A DNA stretch of 64,000 bases from a virus, in IMG/VR virus record IMGVR_UViG_3300045988_010396, positions 32,001 through 96,000 of that record, one strand, 5' to 3'. Position 1 is the first letter of the stretch; each line of letters begins with the position of its first letter. The notes beneath the pieces were generated by a model that saw only the letters and a list, made by a program, of their open reading frames with translations, was not told where the DNA came from and searched no databases. Below, in pieces: positions 4,311 to 37,943 of the stretch. The position numbers and the translations under genes are program-made.

Positions 4311-5057
4311 CTCTGAATTACTCTGCAAAGGTAAGCAAATTTTTTGAATCTACCAAATTTTACTGTAAGAAATTTAATTATTAGAGTCCAGAAAGGTATT
4401 AAGATTACTCTTTTCTATATAATACCTTGTTACCTCTTTGTATTTTAATTAATAATGTGTTCTCAGTATCTACCTCATTAAATCCACCATCAAATATAGG
4501 GTCATAAGCCCAAGATACCATTACTCCATTAAAATACCTATATGTAAGAATATCGCCTCTCTGCAAAGTTATTTTCATAGCCCCATTAATTTATTAGCCC
4601 AACTTTCTGTATAGAAATGATAGTACCCTTCCTTATGATTGTCACAACAATGGATATAACCATTTAACCAAGCATAAAGTATTGAAGGAATACCTAAATT
4701 ATTAGGTATAATATATCCCTAGCCTGTGTTGCCAAGCTTGTTTCATATTAGTTCTGCACTTCGTTGGACCCGTTCTTGGTTATACCCCTAAAGCATATTT
4801 ACCTGTACCTTTTCTCAGTAGTATTGGTTATGCTAATCCAACTTATAACAAAACACTTTGTACCAGTATCGGGGACACCTCATTCCTATATATTGGAACT
4901 ACTACCCAACTTCTGCTCCATTACTTGATTACCTCATGGAGGATAGAGACATACTACCTATCTCTCTGGCAGGTGCAAAGGTAAGTATAAAATCTGATAT
5001 AACCAAATATTTTAAGAAAGTTTAACTATACACTATGGTCTAGGTTAAAAAATTTTA

Positions 5058-11005: not shown

Positions 11006-12429
11006 ATGTGTTCAAAAGTTAATCCTAACCTAAAGCCTGTACCTAAGTTTGAAAACACTCAACTGGCAGGTGGTTATGGTGCATTAGCTGCCAGGCAGTC
11101 CAATGTAGCATTGCTTAGAAGAGCAGTGCTGGCTAATCTCCTTTGAGAGGATGTAGCATATATGGATGGTGAGAGAGTAGCCAATGAAATACAGAGGTTA
11201 ATACCTCTGTGCCCTGCTGAGGATGTATATAATATAGCTCTTGAAGCTAGGTTAATGCAGAAACTGAGGCATACTCCATTGTTTATAGCAGTGGAAATGT
11301 GCAAGTATCCTGAACATAAGTTATTTGTTAAGGACTTGCTACCAAAGATAGTTACAAGAGCTGATATGCTCACTGACTTCTTGGCTATATATATATATAT
11401 TGGAAGGATGGCAAGCATCCTATCTGTAACCAAGCTAAGAAGGGTCTTGCTCTAGCCTTCCACAACTTCAATGAGTATAAGTTGGCTAAGTATGACAGAG
11501 ATGCTGCTATCAAGCTCAGGGATGTGATGTTCTTGGTACATGCAAAGCCTAGAAACCAGTATGAGCAGGAGTTGTTCAATAAGGTAGCTGAGAGAACTCT
11601 CACACCACCTGAGACATGGGAAGTCATGTTAAGTAGAGGTGATGACAAGAAGGCTACTTGGACTAAGCTCATTACAGAGGGTAAGATTGGAGGTCTGGCT
11701 ATGTTGAGAAACATAGCTAATATGCAGAAGGCCAATGTGGATAGAAGGACTATCCAAGATGGCCTTAAGACACTGAGAAGCTCAATGCTATTACCTCTTG
11801 ACTTCTGGAAGGCTGCTAGAATGAACCCAGCATTTGAGAGAGACATTGAGGATGCTATGATAGAGGCATATAAGAACTTACCTAAACTTCCTGGCAAGAC
11901 ACTATTTATAGTGGATGTATCAGGTTCTATGGGTTTTTTAACCTCTGGTAGCTCTCAGTTCAACAGGATGGACCAAGCTTGTGCTATGGCTATCTTGGCA
12001 GCTAATCAGTGTGAGGACTATGAGCTTGTAGCTACAGCAGGTAATGATGATTCTAAAATAAGTGCCTCAGAGTGGATTGAATATCCAAAGAGAGGTTTTG
12101 CTCTTGCTCCACAGATAATGGATACCAGGCATAGGATTAGTGGTGGAGGTATATTCACCAGGCAGTGCCTAGAGTGGTGTAAGGATAAGTTCAAAGACAA
12201 GAAGTTTGATAGAATTATCATATTCTCAGACTCTCAAGACTGTGACTATCCTGAGAAGAGAGTACCTAAACCATTTGGTACATATAACTATATTGTAGAT
12301 GTATCTGCTCATACAAGAGGAGTGAACTACAAGGGTGTATGGACTGCTGAGGTTTCAGGCTGGTCAGAACATTTCTTGACTTATATTGCAGCTCTTGAGG
12401 GATTGCAGAATAAGTTTGAGGAGCAATAA
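11006..12429 (+). pseudogene. rsr: Ro60 / TROVE-domain plus vWA RNA-binding protein (Rsr-like), interrupted
   Basis: N-terminus ...QLAGGYGAL.. (Ro60 NAGGY motif) runs into an in-frame TGA at 11144-11146; continues in the same frame to 11455; after the (TA)7 tract at 11386-11400 the homologous reading moves to frame 1 (...FHNFNEYKLAKYDRD..VMFLVHAKP like Ro60 ALAVTKYKQRNGW..LLRLSHLKP); AMLRNIANMQKA and vWA MIDAS FIVDVSGSMG match human Ro60 ALLRNLGKMTA / LLAVDVSASM. Confidence 0.8.
11386..11400. repeat. (TA)7 dinucleotide tract at the frame junction inside the Ro60 gene
   Basis: tatatatatatatat; losing one TA unit would join the upstream (frame 2) and downstream (frame 1) TROVE segments. Confidence 0.9.
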
Positions 12430-21084: not shown

Positions 21085-21699
21085 TTGGAAATGGTAGACA
21101 ATAGAGAAGTACACATTTATGCATTAAGACATCCTGATACCTTAGAAATAAGGTATGTCGGTAAAACAGTGAGAAAATTAAGTAGAAGGTTAGGGAATCA
21201 TATTGCAAATGCTAAAGGTAACCAGCACAATAAGCATTTAAGTAATTGGATTCTTAATATCTTGAAGGAAAATAAGAAACCTGTAATAGAACTCTTGGAA
21301 ACTTGTCAAAGTAATAACTGGCAAGAAAGAGAGCAATATTGGATTTCTCAATTTCCTAATCTGATAAATCTCACTGCTGGAGGAGATGGATGTGTAGGTT
21401 TTATTCATGATTCTAAAGCTATAGAAAAGATTAGACAATCTAAATTTGGTACTAAACATTCTGTAGAATTTAAGGAAGCTATGAGTAAAAGGCTTAAAGG
21501 TGTGCCTCTTAGTGAAGAACATAAAAGTAAAATAGGTTTAGCTAATAAGGGAAGGAAGGCTTCGGAAACTGCAAGAAAGAGGCTATCAGAATCCCACAAA
21601 GGTATTACTCAGAGTGAGGAATCCAAAAGAAAAAGAAGTGAATCTATTAAACTTTGGTGGACTAAGAGAAAGTCTATTGAAGATATAGTCAAATCTTAA
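21085..21699 (+). CDS. GIY-YIG homing endonuclease
   Basis: HIYAL...IRYVGKT...R...N (GIY-YIG) with C-terminal K/R-rich NUMOD-like repeats. Confidence 0.75.
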   Translation: MEMVDNREVHIYALRHPDTLEIRYVGKTVRKLSRRLGNHIANAKGNQHNKHLSNWILNILKENKKPVIELLETCQSNNWQEREQYWISQFPNLINLTAGGDGCVGFIHDSKAIEKIRQSKFGTKHSVEFKEAMSKRLKGVPLSEEHKSKIGLANKGRKASETARKRLSESHKGITQSEESKRKRSESIKLWWTKRKSIEDIVKS

Positions 21700-24790: not shown

Positions 24791-25468
24791 ATGGAGACAC
24801 GTAAAGTAACCATCATCAATTCAAAGACCCAGAGCCAGAAAGTAATTCAGGACTCTAAGGCTACAACTCTCGGTGAACTCAAGCAGGAAATGAGGGAGAG
24901 AGGTATTGACTACACAGGTATGACTTTCTTTGAAGGTCACATGAGAGCTGAACTCAAGGATGATGCAGCTCCCCTGCCTGCTAACATACCCTATAAGGGT
25001 CAGGTAGTCAATGACTTGACATTCATGTTGACTGCACCTGAGAAGAAGGTTAAGTCAGGTGCTATGTCAAGAGCAGAAGCCTATGCAGAAATCAAGAAGA
25101 AGGGCTTGCAGGGTGCTTGTGTTAGTATGTTCGGTAAGAATTTCACACAGTGTTCCACTGCTGACCTTATCTCTTTGATTGAGAAGAACTCTGCTAAGGC
25201 AGCTCCTGCACCCAAAGCTGAGAAGCCTATAGAGGCAGCAGCTCCTGCAAAGAAGGAGGAAGCTTCTATAGCACCTGAAACTCCTGCTACTGGCTGTAAC
25301 TGTTCAAAGGCTATTGCCATTCTCGCAGAAGCACTATATGATAATGATACCATTGAGGGGGAGACCTATGACGCAATCATGGCTACTCTCAAGGGTGGTT
25401 CTTACAGTGCACCTGAGAAGATGAGCAAGAAGGAGATTGATACTATGTTTGACTTTGTGGAAAGATAA
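24791..25468 (+). CDS. hypothetical protein with Ala/Pro/Lys-rich linker
   Basis: 225-aa ORF. Confidence 0.4.
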   Translation: METRKVTIINSKTQSQKVIQDSKATTLGELKQEMRERGIDYTGMTFFEGHMRAELKDDAAPLPANIPYKGQVVNDLTFMLTAPEKKVKSGAMSRAEAYAEIKKKGLQGACVSMFGKNFTQCSTADLISLIEKNSAKAAPAPKAEKPIEAAAPAKKEEASIAPETPATGCNCSKAIAILAEALYDNDTIEGETYDAIMATLKGGSYSAPEKMSKKEIDTMFDFVER

Positions 25469-25487
25469 GGTCAGATTGGATAACACA

Positions 25488-25529
25488 GTGAAGGGTGAGT
25501 AGTATACTTGCCTTTCACTTTTTTTTTTA
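25488..25529 (+). terminator. Rho-independent terminator
   Basis: AGTGAAGGG...CCTTTCACT hairpin followed by T10. Confidence 0.6.
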
Positions 25530-26853
25530 TACAAGTATGAATGAAGAAATGACTAACAAGGCAAGGGAGTTATATGATAATATCATGTACTTTCCTAATA
25601 AGGTTCTTAGTATATTCAATGACTTCTTTGGAGAGCAGAGAATAGATATGCAGGGGTTCTGGAGCTTTGAAGAGTTCCTATATTCAATATCTGAGAACAG
25701 GCTCAGTTTTTTCTTCTCTAACAGAGGTGCTGTACTTAGTAGCCCAGAGTTCCAAAGTACCAGTAAAGAGAATAAAGCTATTATAGAAGATATGCTTGAT
25801 AATGGTGCTTTGGATAATACTGTACTCAGTGATGAGGCACTTGCCACATATTTCCTGCCTATAATGACTACTGCTGTATTGCAGCATGTTCCACGAGGGT
25901 TCATTCTTGTGCATTTCCCTCATGTAAGGGTTACTAATGAGCATGATAAATTTGTGGATATAAGTCACCTATGGGTTAAAGTACATATAAAGGCAAATGG
26001 CGCAGGCACAGGTTACTTTGGTGTGAATAGGAGTGAGTATGAACTCTCTCATATGAAAGCAGACTATATGCATAGTCATGTTCCTGGTATTCCATTCGGT
26101 GGGTTTACTAGTTTTATGTCTCCTTGTTTAGGCAGTGGACCCATCAGAAATACAGTAGCTACTCTTGCAATGGGATATGATGAAGCTATGTGGCAGTTGT
26201 TCTGTCTTGAACTGGACAAGTATGTTAGAGTTGAGAGTCTCTCTGGAGTACCTCATAGGTATCTGGAGAGGATAGGCAATGGTAGGGGCATGACTAATGG
26301 AGAAACCCATTTCTCCATGAAATCTAATACATTCAATGACTATAGTAACATATTCTCTAAGGAGGATATGAAAGACTTTGTAGAGCACCTGATAAGAGGC
26401 AAGAAGCTTAAATTTAACTTTATAAGAGGAAGCTATGGTTTTGCAATGTCCTATCTTGACTATAGAATACTCATCAGTAATGAGTTCATCGAGTGGTATA
26501 ATCTGAGATATAACTTAGGAAAATCTACTTCAAGTTATGATAACTTTATCAGTAAAGGAATACTGAAAGAATGTATCATCAACAATGGTAAGATACAATA
26601 TTTTAGGAACAATACTGATAATGGTAGAAACTATTATAGATATGAAGGAGCTAATGTATGTACATTCAAGGGTAAACCCATCAATATACATATAGTAGAC
26701 AGTTCCTGTGATACTCTTAACAAGACAGTGTTGGTCAATGCAGGTATTGCTGAGGAAATAGCAAAGGCAGTACTTACAATAGTAAATTACAAGTATGGAA
26801 GAGAAGAAAGAGGAGAAGAAGCTGGAATTGGTACACCAGCAATCTATCTATAA
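25495..26853 (+). CDS. hypothetical protein (true start probably the ATG at about 25537, MNEEMTNK...)
   Basis: 452-aa ORF; the listed upstream start lies inside the terminator T-run. Confidence 0.45.
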   Translation: MSSILAFHFFFYTSMNEEMTNKARELYDNIMYFPNKVLSIFNDFFGEQRIDMQGFWSFEEFLYSISENRLSFFFSNRGAVLSSPEFQSTSKENKAIIEDMLDNGALDNTVLSDEALATYFLPIMTTAVLQHVPRGFILVHFPHVRVTNEHDKFVDISHLWVKVHIKANGAGTGYFGVNRSEYELSHMKADYMHSHVPGIPFGGFTSFMSPCLGSGPIRNTVATLAMGYDEAMWQLFCLELDKYVRVESLSGVPHRYLERIGNGRGMTNGETHFSMKSNTFNDYSNIFSKEDMKDFVEHLIRGKKLKFNFIRGSYGFAMSYLDYRILISNEFIEWYNLRYNLGKSTSSYDNFISKGILKECIINNGKIQYFRNNTDNGRNYYRYEGANVCTFKGKPINIHIVDSSCDTLNKTVLVNAGIAEEIAKAVLTIVNYKYGREERGEEAGIGTPAIYL

Positions 26854-27985
26854 GATGATAATCCCTCAGGAAGTTGAGAAGAAGATAAGACTTCTGTGCA
26901 GGGAGATACATAGTGTGGAATGGTCTGGAGTGCTATTCTACAAGGTAAGTGGTTCATTTGAGGATAAGTCACTGACAATTACTTGTGTAGACTTATTTCA
27001 GATGGATGAAGGTACTGGAGGATATACTGAATATGATATGTCTCCAGATGTCTCAGGTTATATGGTAGACCATCCTGAGCTGCTTGATGCTGATATATAT
27101 CAAGGACTTATCCATAGTCATAACAACATGGCGACGTTTTTCAGTGGTACTGATACAGCCACTCTACAGTCAGAGGGTAGTGACATGAACCACTTTGTGT
27201 CACTGATTGTAAACAATGCTGGTAAATATACAGCAGGGGTGACTAGAAAGGCTAAGCTCAAACAGACAGTCAATGAGGAGTTCACATATCCCACATGGAG
27301 GGATGAGAGTGTATCTGGCAATAGAACCTTTATAGTAGAAAAGGAGTACATCCAATGGTTCAATCTTGACATTGAAATTGAAGGAGTCTGCAATGACTTT
27401 GAAACTGAGATGCTTGAAAGGATTAAGGAGATTAGGACTAATAAAGCCAGCTCTAGGAAAAGTGCTATCAATGTTAGAAGCCCTTATATTAGCTCAAATT
27501 ATGGAGGACCAATAGGTTCCTATGGTAGCCCCAGAGGATATACAATACCTGCTGATCCAGCCAACACTACTCCTATCAAGAAAGAGGTTAAGCAATCTAC
27601 ACTCTTTGGTGATAGTGATGAGGAGTTTATGGACTATGAGAAGTTCAAGCTCAGTGATGAGATAGTGGACTGGGTGGTCAAGCAGACCATCACTTGTAGT
27701 GTAATCATTCCTAACTCTAGTAATATTGACATAGAGAAGTGGGCTAGGTCTATGGATTCTCTGTATAAAAAGAGATTCACAGACAAGAAGGAGTTTGAAG
27801 CCTTTGCATCAAACTTTGTGGACTTTGTGGTTACCTATACAGAAGACCCAGAGGCTGCTGCCTTCTTGGATTCTACAGAGATGGCTGCTGTATTGGCTTA
27901 TCAAGTAAAAGAGAGACTAAGCTCCCTGCCTAAGAATGAGTGGCTGGATGCTTGGATTAAATTGTATGATGATTATATACTATAA
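26795..27985 (+). CDS. JAB/MPN (JAMM) metalloprotease-domain protein
   Basis: E...HSHNNMATFFSGTD = H-x-H-x7-S-x2-D JAMM motif. Confidence 0.7.
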   Translation: MEEKKEEKKLELVHQQSIYKMIIPQEVEKKIRLLCREIHSVEWSGVLFYKVSGSFEDKSLTITCVDLFQMDEGTGGYTEYDMSPDVSGYMVDHPELLDADIYQGLIHSHNNMATFFSGTDTATLQSEGSDMNHFVSLIVNNAGKYTAGVTRKAKLKQTVNEEFTYPTWRDESVSGNRTFIVEKEYIQWFNLDIEIEGVCNDFETEMLERIKEIRTNKASSRKSAINVRSPYISSNYGGPIGSYGSPRGYTIPADPANTTPIKKEVKQSTLFGDSDEEFMDYEKFKLSDEIVDWVVKQTITCSVIIPNSSNIDIEKWARSMDSLYKKRFTDKKEFEAFASNFVDFVVTYTEDPEAAAFLDSTEMAAVLAYQVKERLSSLPKNEWLDAWIKLYDDYIL

Positions 27986-27987
27986 GT

Positions 27988-28899
27988 ATGGAAGATATGG
28001 TAAGTGAAGCAAGTGCTCAAGCTCTTAACCAATTAGAGCAGGCTCGTCAAGAGCTTGAAAGAGCTATTACGGATTATGAGATACCTGAGGAAGCTCAATT
28101 GAGTCCAGAAGAGGAAGCAATGTTGTCAGTAGCAATGGATAGTACACATCGTGAAATACCAGTAAACTCACAGACAATCACTATAGATGAGACTACAAGC
28201 AGGTTCAGTGGAGCTATATGGTATGAGGAGATACAGAAACAGACTGTCACTTTGGCAGGTGTTGGAGGTATTGGCAGCTATGTAGGCTTTTTGTTAAGTA
28301 GATTGAAGCCAAATAGACTTATCATATATGACCCTGACAGAGTTGAGACTGTCAATATGTCAGGTCAGTTGTATGGTCAGACAGATGTAGGTCGTTATAA
28401 GTGTGCAGCTCTTGCCGATATGGTCATGAACTACGCTAACTATTGCAATATAGTGGCATTGGGCCAAAGGTTTGAGGATAACTCTGAGGCTACTGACATT
28501 ATGATATGTGGCTTTGATAATATGGCAGCAAGAAGGACATTCTATGAGAAGTGGAAGCAGAGAGTATTGTCCTATCCTGCTGGTAGTGATAATAGAAAGA
28601 AGTGTCTATTCATAGATGGAAGATTGGCAGCAGAAGAGTTCCAAGTATTGTCTATTCAAGGGGATGATGAGAGGGCTATGGCAGCATATGAAGACAAGTG
28701 GCTGTTCAGTGATGTAGAAGCTGAGGAGACTATATGCTCCTATAAGCAGACTACATTTATGGCTAACATGATTGCATCAGTAATGGTCAATGTCTTTGTA
28801 AACTTCATAGCTAACCAATGTGGTCCTATCATAGATAGGGATGTGCCTTTCTTCATATCCTATGATGCAAGTACAATGTTTACTAAAGTTGAAATGTAA
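27988..28899 (+). CDS. E1-like ThiF/MoeB-family adenylyltransferase
   Basis: Rossmann motif VTLAGVGGIGSYVG and C-terminal Cys residues; immediately downstream of the JAB gene. Confidence 0.7.
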   Translation: MEDMVSEASAQALNQLEQARQELERAITDYEIPEEAQLSPEEEAMLSVAMDSTHREIPVNSQTITIDETTSRFSGAIWYEEIQKQTVTLAGVGGIGSYVGFLLSRLKPNRLIIYDPDRVETVNMSGQLYGQTDVGRYKCAALADMVMNYANYCNIVALGQRFEDNSEATDIMICGFDNMAARRTFYEKWKQRVLSYPAGSDNRKKCLFIDGRLAAEEFQVLSIQGDDERAMAAYEDKWLFSDVEAEETICSYKQTTFMANMIASVMVNVFVNFIANQCGPIIDRDVPFFISYDASTMFTKVEM

Positions 28900-29696
28900 T
28901 GCAAAGAGTAAGTGATAGAATGGGTCATACTATTGAATATATGTATAACTCAACAGGAGCTGTAAGTGGCAGCGGAGTTTCAGCTGCATATGTTAATTAC
29001 TCCTCGCACACAGTGTTTCCACTATTCTTTAGGGTTTCTTTACAAGGGGATAAGATTGAGCTTCCCATACTTGCCAAGGAGTGCGTGCAAGGTGACCTTC
29101 TTGCAAGATTAGAGGCTAGGTCAAACCCTCTCAGAAGAAGGGACATCATTATGCCCCTCTCTACTCTAGAGTTTAACCATGCTCCTTATAGAACAGCAGA
29201 TGCCTTAATCAGGAATCTGGTGGAGTTCAACTCCAGTAGGGGGGACATGTATCTGAGGGCCAAGACCAACAAAGGAGAGACATACTATGGATGTAATGGT
29301 ACTATATTCAACAAGGATATGGTTCCACTTATCTTCAATGTCATAGAATGTGAGATTGTGGGTAATACTCTTGCCTATAAGAGAGTCAAGAGTTATATAC
29401 ATCCATCAGTATTCTATTCTGATGGTATTGTGGAGAAGTGTATAGCCAACAAGATTATCCCATTTGTCATGCAGAATGGTGTAGATGTGAGACCCTATGA
29501 CTCAAGGATAGTCAATGACATCAGCTATGTAAATATAGGAGGAGTAAGGAAGACTATACCTGAGCTGTCAGTTGCCAATGTAGCTGACAGGTTCTTCTGT
29601 AAGCCCATTCTTCCTAGTGTGGCATATAGTGATGACAACATCAATGATATGCTTAACAGAAACATTGATGATATATTCAATATCATTGGGGTATGA
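28899..29696 (+). CDS. hypothetical protein
   Basis: 265-aa ORF translationally coupled to the E1-like gene. Confidence 0.45.
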   Translation: MQRVSDRMGHTIEYMYNSTGAVSGSGVSAAYVNYSSHTVFPLFFRVSLQGDKIELPILAKECVQGDLLARLEARSNPLRRRDIIMPLSTLEFNHAPYRTADALIRNLVEFNSSRGDMYLRAKTNKGETYYGCNGTIFNKDMVPLIFNVIECEIVGNTLAYKRVKSYIHPSVFYSDGIVEKCIANKIIPFVMQNGVDVRPYDSRIVNDISYVNIGGVRKTIPELSVANVADRFFCKPILPSVAYSDDNINDMLNRNIDDIFNIIGV

Positions 29697-31588: not shown

Positions 31589-32191
31589 ATGGAGTGTAGT
31601 ATTTGGATTTATCAAAAATTCTTAGTATCTTTGCACTTTGCAACTAAAGTTTTTGAAGATATGGAAGAAATTTGGAAAGACATTCCTGGATATGAGGGAT
31701 TGTACCAAGTTAGTAGTCTTGGAAGGTTCAAAGCTCTGAGTAGAGTAAGAAAGGGAATTTATGGAAATAGAATCTACAAGGAAAAGTTATTATCTCCTAA
31801 AGTGAATTTTGATAGGTACTACTATGTAACCTTAACTAAGGAAGGTAAGAAAACTAGTTATAGAGCACATAGACTAGTAGCTTTAGCTTTTCTTGGAGAT
31901 AGCAATCTAGTCATAGACCACATTGACGGTAATCCCTTGAATAATGAGGTTACTAATCTAAGATATGTATCTCAAGCTGAGAATGTTTCTAATCCTAATA
32001 CTATATGTAAGCAGTATAAGCCTGTTATACAGTTGTCTATGGATGATACTGTTATAGCTGAGTATCCTTCAGTTATGAGTGCTGCACTAGCAGTGGGAGC
32101 TTATAAATATGGGACTCATATAGGGCAGTGCTGTAATGGAAAGAGGACTACTGCATATAATTATAAATGGAAATGGAAAGAAAAAGTATAA
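31589..32191 (+). CDS. HNH homing endonuclease (NUMOD4 plus HNH_3)
   Basis: WKDIPGYEGLYQVSSLGRFKAL then AHRLVALAFLG...DHIDGNPLNN...N. Confidence 0.75.
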   Translation: MECSIWIYQKFLVSLHFATKVFEDMEEIWKDIPGYEGLYQVSSLGRFKALSRVRKGIYGNRIYKEKLLSPKVNFDRYYYVTLTKEGKKTSYRAHRLVALAFLGDSNLVIDHIDGNPLNNEVTNLRYVSQAENVSNPNTICKQYKPVIQLSMDDTVIAEYPSVMSAALAVGAYKYGTHIGQCCNGKRTTAYNYKWKWKEKV

Positions 32192-37442: not shown

Positions 37443-37943
37443 ATGGAATTTGTATTGAAAATAGTGTTTGTGTTGCTCCTAGCAGGCATTGCTGTCATAG
37501 TAGCACATTTCGTTGATTCTGCTAGGAAGAAAGTTTCTCACAGCAGTATGTCTTTCAGAGAGACTATGGACTTATGTGAGCTTCCTATAGTAACATTTAT
37601 GAATAATGGAAGGAAATTGAATTTTCTCTTGGACACTGGTGCAAGTAAATCTGTTATTCATAGTGGTGCTCTAGAAGGACTTACATATAAAAGTATCAAT
37701 AAATCTGGTGATGTATATGGTATGGATGGAAAAAGGAAGGATGCCTCTTTTATCAATATGTCTATAGGATATAGAGGTAAAGATTATAATGAGGAGTTCC
37801 AATCTATTGATATGAGTGTCCCATTCAGTAACCTAAAGGCCGACTTTGGTGTTAATCTGCATGGTATTCTATCTAGTACCTTCTTTCAGAAGTATAAGTA
37901 TGTACTGAACTTTGATGAACTGGTAGCCTATTCTATGGTATGA
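37443..37943 (+). CDS. membrane-anchored retropepsin-like aspartic protease
   Basis: N-terminal TM helix then LLDTGASKSVI (hydrophobic-hydrophobic-D-T/S-G-A). Confidence 0.5.
   Translation: MEFVLKIVFVLLLAGIAVIVAHFVDSARKKVSHSSMSFRETMDLCELPIVTFMNNGRKLNFLLDTGASKSVIHSGALEGLTYKSINKSGDVYGMDGKRKDASFINMSIGYRGKDYNEEFQSIDMSVPFSNLKADFGVNLHGILSSTFFQKYKYVLNFDELVAYSMV

Follow-up and report, generated by a model that had tools for sequence, protein, structure and literature searches.

A candidate ubiquitin-like conjugation cassette in the replication module of crAss-like phages

Introduction

What does a phage do with an E1-like activating enzyme encoded next to a JAB metallopeptidase? Prokaryotic conjugation of ubiquitin-like proteins (Ubls), as performed by the Cap2, Bil and Bub systems, has recently been established as a bacterial weapon against phages. 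Here, this question is asked of a 64,000-nt stretch of viral DNA (IMG/VR record IMGVR_UViG_3300045988_010396, positions 32,001 to 96,000; hereafter the window), in which a JAB/MPN gene and a ThiF-type E1 gene lie side by side. The original prediction for this DNA took the pair as the mark of a Ubl conjugation or deconjugation system and reported no obvious beta-grasp protein nearby. The former view is supported here and extended by an upstream Ubl domain, an E2-like open reading frame (ORF) and a gene order like that of bacterial Bil operons. The latter was wrong, as a beta-grasp domain is encoded immediately upstream (24791-25060), outside the span then considered; it had been missed because a free protein ending in Gly-Gly was sought, whereas the actual one is an N-terminal domain ending in Ser-Gly. 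Positions 24791-29696 are probably a phage-encoded Ubl protein conjugation cassette, in the order Ubl, E2, JAB and E1 with one further gene, all on the plus strand.

[quoted passage not shown] Identity of its E1 amounts to 68% with gp76 of Bacteroides phage crAss001 (Crassvirales, Steigviridae, Kehishuvirus) and to 52-67% with the E1 proteins of DAC15/DAC17, the PhiCrAssBcn phages and 'cr' phages that are uncultured. A megablast search with the region gave no match and no near-identical DNA among GenBank phages; the relatives came from protein searches instead.

A Ubl domain fused to a helical C-terminal region

The cassette opens with a 225-aa ORF, the ortholog of crAss001 gp79, whose residues 1-90 (24791-25060) form the Ubl domain and whose C-terminal part (25061-25468) was delimited from AlphaFold2 secondary structure and alignments. 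The Ubl family is large (845 clusters at 50% identity), and in 77 representatives of such clusters, which are 35-88% identical to the window copy, the first 90 residues end in K-K-[IV]-x-S-G. The C-terminal tail of the window Ubl reads K85-K86-V-K-S89-G90 (G90 codon 25058-25060), and across the 77 representatives G90 is invariant and S89 at least 90% conserved. A variable linker of 0-3 residues follows G90 and leads into a conserved Arg-containing helix. The AlphaFold2 model of the 225-aa protein made with this alignment was confident (predicted local distance difference test, pLDDT, 88.5) and comprised a beta-beta-alpha-beta-beta...beta domain (residues 4-81), a disordered tail (82-93, with pLDDT below 50 at 87-89) and a helical cargo part, in which three helices (94-137) are joined by an Ala/Pro/Lys/Glu-rich hinge to a C-terminal domain (171-219). 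The N-terminal domain is a beta-grasp Ubl with the conserved C-terminal-type Gly that forms the reactive end in Bil-type operons, and the cargo is presumed to be the product released by cleavage.

Natural variants in which Ubl and cargo are split were observed at three loci. At L049, a HNH/NUMOD-type homing-endonuclease ORF (170 aa; L049:3335-3847) sits exactly in the linker after the Ubl Ser-Gly. L056 carries at this point a 47-aa ORF (L056:3844-3987) that matches the middle of the L049 endonuclease and is apparently a decayed remnant of such a gene, and L050 is interrupted at the same place. All three encode a free 91-aa Ubl ORF ending in ...KKIRSG-IC or ...KKIKSG-KF, and in L049 and L056 the cargo is a separately initiated C-terminal ORF. 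Another free Ubl (P0297, 92 aa), a database protein seen without its genomic context, ends in SG plus two residues. The existence of these natural splits indicates that the covalent link between Ubl and cargo is dispensable, and in their short extension at the C-terminus the free forms resemble, by sequence, classical Ubl precursors. A group I intron was considered as the cause of the L049 split and rejected, as none was found by Rfam; the split is read as the insertion of a free-standing HNH gene.

The cargo also varies in one clade (L062:3414-4349; also L063, L064, L068, L069, L076, P0283 and P0363), where the Ubl-cargo ortholog is 312-333 aa long and carries a ribosomal bL12 (L7/L12) C-terminal domain in its Ala/Pro-rich hinge (Pfam PF00542, 1e-16 to 1e-8). 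This domain, which usually makes contact with translational GTPases, is not present in the window copy.

An E2-like protein with an invariant cysteine

The second gene, the ortholog of crAss001 gp78, was called as a 452-aa ORF opening at GTG 25495 (25495-26853). Its likely start is ATG 25537, which is preferred because the resulting 438-aa protein (25537-26853) agrees with the 433-444 aa of its homologs. Sequence searches with this protein in Pfam, PHROGs, PADLOC, NCBIfam and the PDB (by profile) gave nothing meaningful, and its 1,861 homologs (E <= 1e-3) are without Pfam annotation. Nevertheless invariant across the family is a cluster formed by Y177, H179, S180, H181, F193, P196, C197, G199, G201 and P202 (C197 codon 26125-26127; H179 and H181 within 26071-26079), and the same residues are retained in gp52 of Flavobacterium phage FpV4 at 26% identity.

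In the AlphaFold2 model (pLDDT 85), helices (100-115) precede a meander of four strands (121-169) and a long loop (175-201) that bears the invariant His-x-His and Cys; further helices follow at 202-212 and 216-229, and extra N-terminal helical and C-terminal alpha/beta domains are present. As modeled, the 438-aa protein is an E2/UBC-like fold with an invariant Cys, and Y177, H179, S180 and H181 together with P196, C197, G199 and G201 are its candidate catalytic center. A Foldseek search of the model against the PDB returned no match below E 0.4. The earlier suggestion that the ORFs flanking the JAB-E1 pair might hide E2-like or beta-grasp folds held for this ORF and not for the 265-aa ORF on the other side, which is neither by all tests applied.

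The JAB metallopeptidase

The 396-aa JAB/MPN (JAMM) metallopeptidase (26795-27985; ortholog of crAss001 gp77) is encoded in a different frame from the E2-like protein, with which it overlaps by 59 nt (26795-26853), and both frames are conserved across clades. An overlap of the same type measures 62 nt in crAss001 and 125 nt in FpV4. The possibility that the overlap is an artefact of ORF calling, with the true JAB start at M21, was rejected because the first 20 JAB residues are conserved across clades, including clades without that Met; we regard the overlap as real. Spacing is equally close downstream, with a gap of 2 nt between the JAB and E1 genes, an overlap of 1 nt between E1 and the 265-aa gene, and an overlap of 4 nt between the latter and the UDG gene. 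All four ORFs of the original prediction (25495-26853, 26795-27985, 27988-28899 and 28899-29696) exist, and its description of an E1-JAB pair tightly packed between two ORFs of unknown family (452 and 265 aa) proved accurate.

The catalytic domain covers residues ~20-160 and is followed by a conserved helical C-terminal extension of ~230 aa. The JAMM motif recognized earlier is indeed complete (H107-S-H109-x7-S117-x2-D120) and is accompanied by an upstream E42 (codons: E42, 26918-26920; H107/H109, 27113-27121; S117, 27143-27145; D120, 27152-27154). E42, H107, H109, S117 and D120 are invariant in an alignment of 23 diverse JAB homologs, including that of FpV4 at 28% identity (alignment A4). The Pfam Prok-JAB match was weak (3e-4; 21.1 bits, under the 25-bit gathering cutoff), and a profile of the family aligned the motif with archaeal JAMM1, CSN5 and Rpn11-like chains in PDB matches at 0.004-0.1. 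The protein is a JAB/JAMM peptidase with the E...HxH...S..D signature.

In one relative (L060:4717-5810; IMGVR_UViG_3300029904_000005), an insert splits the JAB gene within the JAMM HxH, after the codon for H107 and before that for S108. The insert of ~1 kb contains a group I intron recognized by Rfam (RF00028, 66.4 bits, E 2.6e-16, at 4717-4976) and, on the opposite strand, a 244-aa LAGLIDADG-type ORF. Joining the JAB exons restores ...GLIH|SHNNMSTFFSGTD.

A minimal E1-like protein

The 303-aa product of the fourth gene (27988-28899; ortholog of crAss001 gp76) is of the minimal ThiF/MoeB/UBA5 type. Its position next to the JAB gene and its E1-like nature were both recognized earlier and are confirmed by a Pfam ThiF match (7.7e-18; 64.9 bits against a cutoff of 28.1), which defines a single ThiF domain at residues 79-296 behind a variable N-terminal extension of ~75 residues. 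In PADLOC, the protein matched the E1 half of Cap2 'E1-E2' models down to 3e-11 and, partially and over residues 87-185 only, BilD (6.8e-6). Conserved in 79 E1 sequences are R72 (SRFSG), G91-x-G93-G94-x-G96, Y114-D115-x-D117, E120, N123, Q127, K138, D177 and C250, the last of which is invariant (codon 28735-28737).

The nearest solved relatives by sequence are UBA5 (9e-6), MccB (1.2e-4) and UBA3, of which UBA5 is a genuine minimal Ubl-E1. In a weak, non-significant HMMER stretch (score -3.3), ETIC250SYKQTT lies opposite EGVCAASLPTT of UBA5, whose Cys we take to be the UBA5 catalytic Cys, and in an alignment made by eye C250 presumably occupies the position of MoeB C187 and ThiF C184. Judged from these comparisons, the phage protein is a minimal E1 in the style of MoeB and UBA5, with one adenylation domain.

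A fast-evolving fifth gene

A 265-aa protein (28899-29696; ortholog of crAss001 gp75) is encoded directly after the E1 gene in every case and is syntenic in all related loci. It evolves fastest in the cassette, with 22-31% identity between clades compared to 60-68% for E1, and it had no match in Pfam, PHROG-function, PADLOC, NCBIfam or the PDB (by profile). An invariant Y129-x-G131-x-x-G134 motif is the only part that aligns with FpV4 gp49 (hhalign E 0.048). The protein could be an adaptor, a target, or unrelated to the other four.

Only one of its 108 homologs has a Pfam domain. This protein (P0459, 327 aa, from a 2.2-kb metagenome contig) carries part of a 4'-phosphopantetheinyl transferase (ACPS) domain (Pfam 3e-9) as a C-terminal fusion, which is probably a chimera or a one-off.

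Co-inheritance and distribution

Conservation of the run g314-primase-Ubl protein-E2-like-JAB-E1-g265-UDG was seen in crAss001, DAC15, bajarodcaudo virus and ~80 IMG/VR loci. In Flavobacterium phage FpV4, homologs of the E2-like protein (26% identity), JAB (40%) and E1 (35%) are accompanied by gp53, a homolog of the Ubl protein (hhalign probability 97.6%, E 4e-12) whose tail reads ...KQVKSG|GRGD, and the UDG gene has been relocated away from the cassette. The genes for the Ubl, the E2-like protein, the JAB and the E1 are thus syntenic in the ~80 IMG/VR loci and in FpV4. As far as can be judged from these homologies, the Ubl-E2-JAB-E1 core co-travels over large evolutionary distances. A scan of one genome each for 185,579 prokaryotic species yielded only four loci, all on contigs of metagenome-assembled genomes (one of 94 kb), which we infer to be mis-binned phage. 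The cassette family looks phage-specific, and the window and all its relatives are crAss-like or FpV4-like phage genomes, not bacterial defence islands.

A distant ThiF-type E1 (29% identity) is encoded by the Xanthomonas jumbo phage PhiXhv-12 (L005:2265-6515), preceded by an 892-aa Cys-rich protein and followed by two ORFs (70 aa and 243 aa). Neither a JAB nor relatives of the crAss cassette proteins could be detected at this locus, which may represent a different E1-based system. The 892-aa protein ('RIHPH...CLGSF') was suspected by eye to be an E2 like that of the cassette and was rejected on its hhalign probability of 0.1%.

Comparison with known Ubl systems

The gene order of the cassette (Ubl at 24791, E2-like at 25537, JAB at 26795 and E1 at 27988) is that of Bil operons, in which Ubl, E2, deubiquitinase and E1 follow one another (PMC10557695). 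The four functions and their order are common to the phage cassette and BilABCD (bacterial ISG15-like; Type I/II, with Type II = 'CEHH/6C'), and the likeness extends to individual proteins. BilC trims BilA behind one conserved Gly (G97|A98), beyond which BilA homologs have up to 9 extra residues; the phage Ubl likewise has a single conserved Gly with residues following it, the JAB cut being known for Bil and predicted here. In BilB, strand 4 and the catalytic Cys are separated by a long loop, a conserved His is adjacent, and no E3 is present (PMC10557695); the phage E2-like protein is similar in its long loop, in the His near its Cys and in the absence of an E3. In contrast, BilD has an IAD-AAD-CYS architecture with a Zn site, whereas the phage E1 is a 303-aa single adenylation domain. 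Also unlike Bil are the location in a lytic phage genome, the 438-aa E2-like protein with its extra domains, the 230-aa JAB extension and the fusion of the Ubl to a 135-aa cargo. PADLOC found no BilA, BilB or BilC match in the Ubl protein, the E2-like protein or the JAB. Because of the different E1 architecture, the lack of these matches and the phage location, the cassette is best described as a close functional parallel of Bil and not as a member of the Bil families.

Other systems are further removed. In Type I Bub (6E/DUF6527; 6E.1), the Ubl is fused to E2 and the JAB to E1, catalysis proceeds through Ser oxyesters, a DUF6527 serine protease (BubE) is present, and the JAB domain of BubCD cuts the Ubl-E2 fusion right after G229 (PMC11601596). 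The phage genes, by contrast, are separate, their candidate catalytic residues are Cys197 and Cys250, and no DUF6527 match (Pfam) was found in the cassette proteins. CBASS type II (Cap2/Cap3) uses an E2-E1 fusion with the CD-NTase C-terminus in the Ubl role, whereas the phage cassette has separate genes and a dedicated beta-grasp Ubl; no CD-NTase or effector domain was found among the neighbouring ORFs scanned. Like UBA5, MoeB and ThiF, the phage E1 has one adenylation domain and no separate Cys domain, and its best solved relative is UBA5; the phage protein differs from them by the absence of Zn CxxC pairs, by Gly126 in place of an Arg and by the lack of a UFM1-interacting C-terminal tail.

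Among phages, the tail assembly genes of lambda and T1 offer the closest precedent. There, TAPI starts with a Ubl that has a conserved Gly at its end and continues through a low-complexity linker into a C-terminal domain, TAPK is a JAB-NlpC/P60 protein, and JAB cleavage at the conserved Gly of TAPI has been predicted (Iyer et al. 2006). The 225-aa protein resembles TAPI in its Ubl, linker and C-terminal domain and in having a JAB partner. Unlike TAPI/TAPK, which belong to a tail module without E1 or E2, the cassette lies in a replication module with both. TAPI/TAPK is the only phage Ubl-JAB pairing described earlier in the literature searched. In that literature, on crAss-like phages with ThiF, JAB or ubiquitin and on phage-encoded Bil, the present cassette is not described; subscription journals lay outside the search, and an earlier mention is possible.

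Proposed pathway and alternative explanations

In the conjugation pathway that we propose, the 225-aa protein would be made as a Ubl-cargo fusion, and the JAB would cut it after the invariant Ser89-Gly90 to give a 90-residue Ubl with a C-terminal Gly and a helical C-terminal fragment. The small, probably homodimeric, UBA5/MoeB-like E1 would then adenylate Gly90 and load the Ubl onto Cys250 in its crossover loop, from where a thioester relay would hand it to Cys197 of the 438-aa E2-like protein. Target choice may lie with the extra domains of the E2-like protein, possibly together with the 265-aa protein, and host or phage proteins would receive the Ubl on their lysines in the replication phase of infection. 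The JAB may also reverse the modification.

Several features weigh against such a pathway. No E3 and no target could be identified for the cassette, and the fifth gene is left unexplained. The Ubl tail is internal and reads Ser-Gly instead of Gly-Gly. In the E1, Gly126 takes the place of the Arg that MoeB, ThiF and UBA5 have in N-x-x-R-Q. This protein is also without a separate or inserted CYS domain and without Zn-binding CxxC pairs, and its top family matches are ThiF sulfur-carrier models, though far under their cutoffs. One alternative is a sulfur-carrier pathway of the ThiS/MoaD/CysO/QbsE type, in which the JAB would trim the Ubl precursor, the E1 would adenylate Gly90 for conversion to a thiocarboxylate, and the 438-aa and/or 265-aa protein would use the sulfur for a thio-modified nucleotide, a cofactor or a DNA/tRNA base. 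We consider this unlikely. The ThiF matches are partial, the best in NCBIfam (NF006395) scoring 62.1 bits against an equivalog cutoff of 159, MoeB models score ~20-25 against 266-449, and PRTRC_ThiF is far under its cutoff, so that the E1 misses the curated ThiF/MoeB equivalog scores. Neither a rhodanese nor a cysteine desulfurase (IscS/NifS), ThiG/ThiH, MoaE, CysM or PP-loop enzyme was found in the ORFs scanned (~11-45 kb), the partner protein resembles an E2 and not a sulfur-inserting enzyme, and the gene order agrees with Bil conjugation operons. The small-molecule or sulfur-carrier role that the original prediction had kept as an option is weakened accordingly. A degenerate JAB and an E1 lacking conjugation partners had also been envisaged; instead, the JAB retains all catalytic residues and the E1 has such partners.

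Two further explanations were considered. Bil systems attach a Ubl to a protein of the phage tail and JAB enzymes undo such linkages (PMC10557695, PMC11601603), and the E1 resembles the adenylation domains of Cap2 and BilD (PADLOC). The cassette might accordingly act in counter-defence by deconjugation or as a decoy, the JAB stripping host Bil- or CBASS-type conjugates as Cap3 and BilC do, or the phage Ubl and E1 jamming the host pathway, and the phage building no conjugates of its own. For deconjugation alone, however, there would be no need to inherit along with the JAB a Ubl whose Gly is invariant and an E1 and an E2-like protein that each keep an invariant Cys, yet Ubl, E2-like protein, JAB and E1 are all conserved from Steigviridae to FpV4; nor does the JAB show specific similarity to Cap3 or BilC models (PADLOC JAB 0.013 only), and this explanation appears a little less probable than a sulfur carrier. 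The lowest probability is assigned to regulated cargo release, with the Ubl as a cleavable pro-domain or chaperone, the helical C-terminal fragment acting in replication or on the translation apparatus, and the E1 doing something unrelated, e.g., adenylating a peptide or small molecule as MccB does. In favor of this are the conserved and modular C-terminal part, which in one clade contains the bL12 C-terminal domain (PF00542, 1e-16), the similar Ubl-linker-domain build of lambda TAPI beside a JAB, and the presence of MccB among the PDB matches of the E1. Such a role would leave the invariant Cys residues of the E1 and E2-like proteins and the Bil-like gene order unexplained, and the natural split variants show the fusion, and hence regulated release, to be dispensable.

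Whether Steigviridae crAss-like and FpV4-like Flavobacterium phages as a group run their own complete Ubl conjugation pathway, tagging host or phage proteins, is in our estimate an even call. If they do, the purpose of tagging may be takeover, replication control or counter-defence, and the pathway would be the first Ubl conjugation system in a virus of bacteria, an offensive mirror image of the Bil, Bub and CBASS defences, assembled from an E2 that is a sequence orphan and a minimal, UBA5-like E1. With its four-part machinery in the conserved core of the replication module, it would mean that phages use Ubl conjugation too. crAss-like phages are among the most abundant human gut viruses and have cultured representatives in crAss001 (host B. 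intestinalis) and DAC15/DAC17 (host B. thetaiotaomicron), and from the conserved tail K-x-[KR]-S-G a specific Ser-Gly remnant on lysines would be expected in proteomics.

The annotation of crAss001 is also affected. In the same run it lists gp80 as primase, gp79 and gp78 as hypothetical, gp77 as 'metalloprotease domain', gp76 as 'thiamine biosynthesis protein ThiF', gp75 as hypothetical and gp74 as UDG. Two of the three 'hypothetical' cassette proteins (gp78 and gp79) can now be given model-based folds, gp75 is still without one, and the 'thiamine biosynthesis protein' label of gp76 is corrected.

Genomic setting and neighboring genes

The window has a GC content of ~38%, and its plus strand carries a single long coding block from ~6 kb to ~57 kb. 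Upstream of the cassette lie genes for an SNF2-type helicase, a DnaB-like protein and a primase, and downstream those for UDG, a PD-(D/E)XK exonuclease, NrdD/NrdG, dUTPase, PolA and ThyX; a DUF1064 protein is also among the neighbors. The setting is the ordinary replication and nucleotide-metabolism block of crAss-like phages, in agreement with the location first proposed.

Two free-standing homing endonuclease genes, at 21085-21699 and 31589-32191, were observed in the replication block (GIY-YIG + NUMOD3 and NUMOD4 + HNH_3, respectively). Elsewhere in the window, a 315-aa ORF with a TTG start (11482-12429) matches TROVE (6.3e-10) and a Ro60-type vWA domain (5.6e-4), which suggests, by sequence similarity, a fragment of a Ro60-like RNA-binding protein. 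Adjoining the dUTPase gene, a 166-aa ORF (37443-37943) matches retropepsin-like aspartyl proteases (Pfam Asp_protease_2, 1.3e-5), a fold that also occurs in ubiquitin-dependent proteases of the Ddi1 type.

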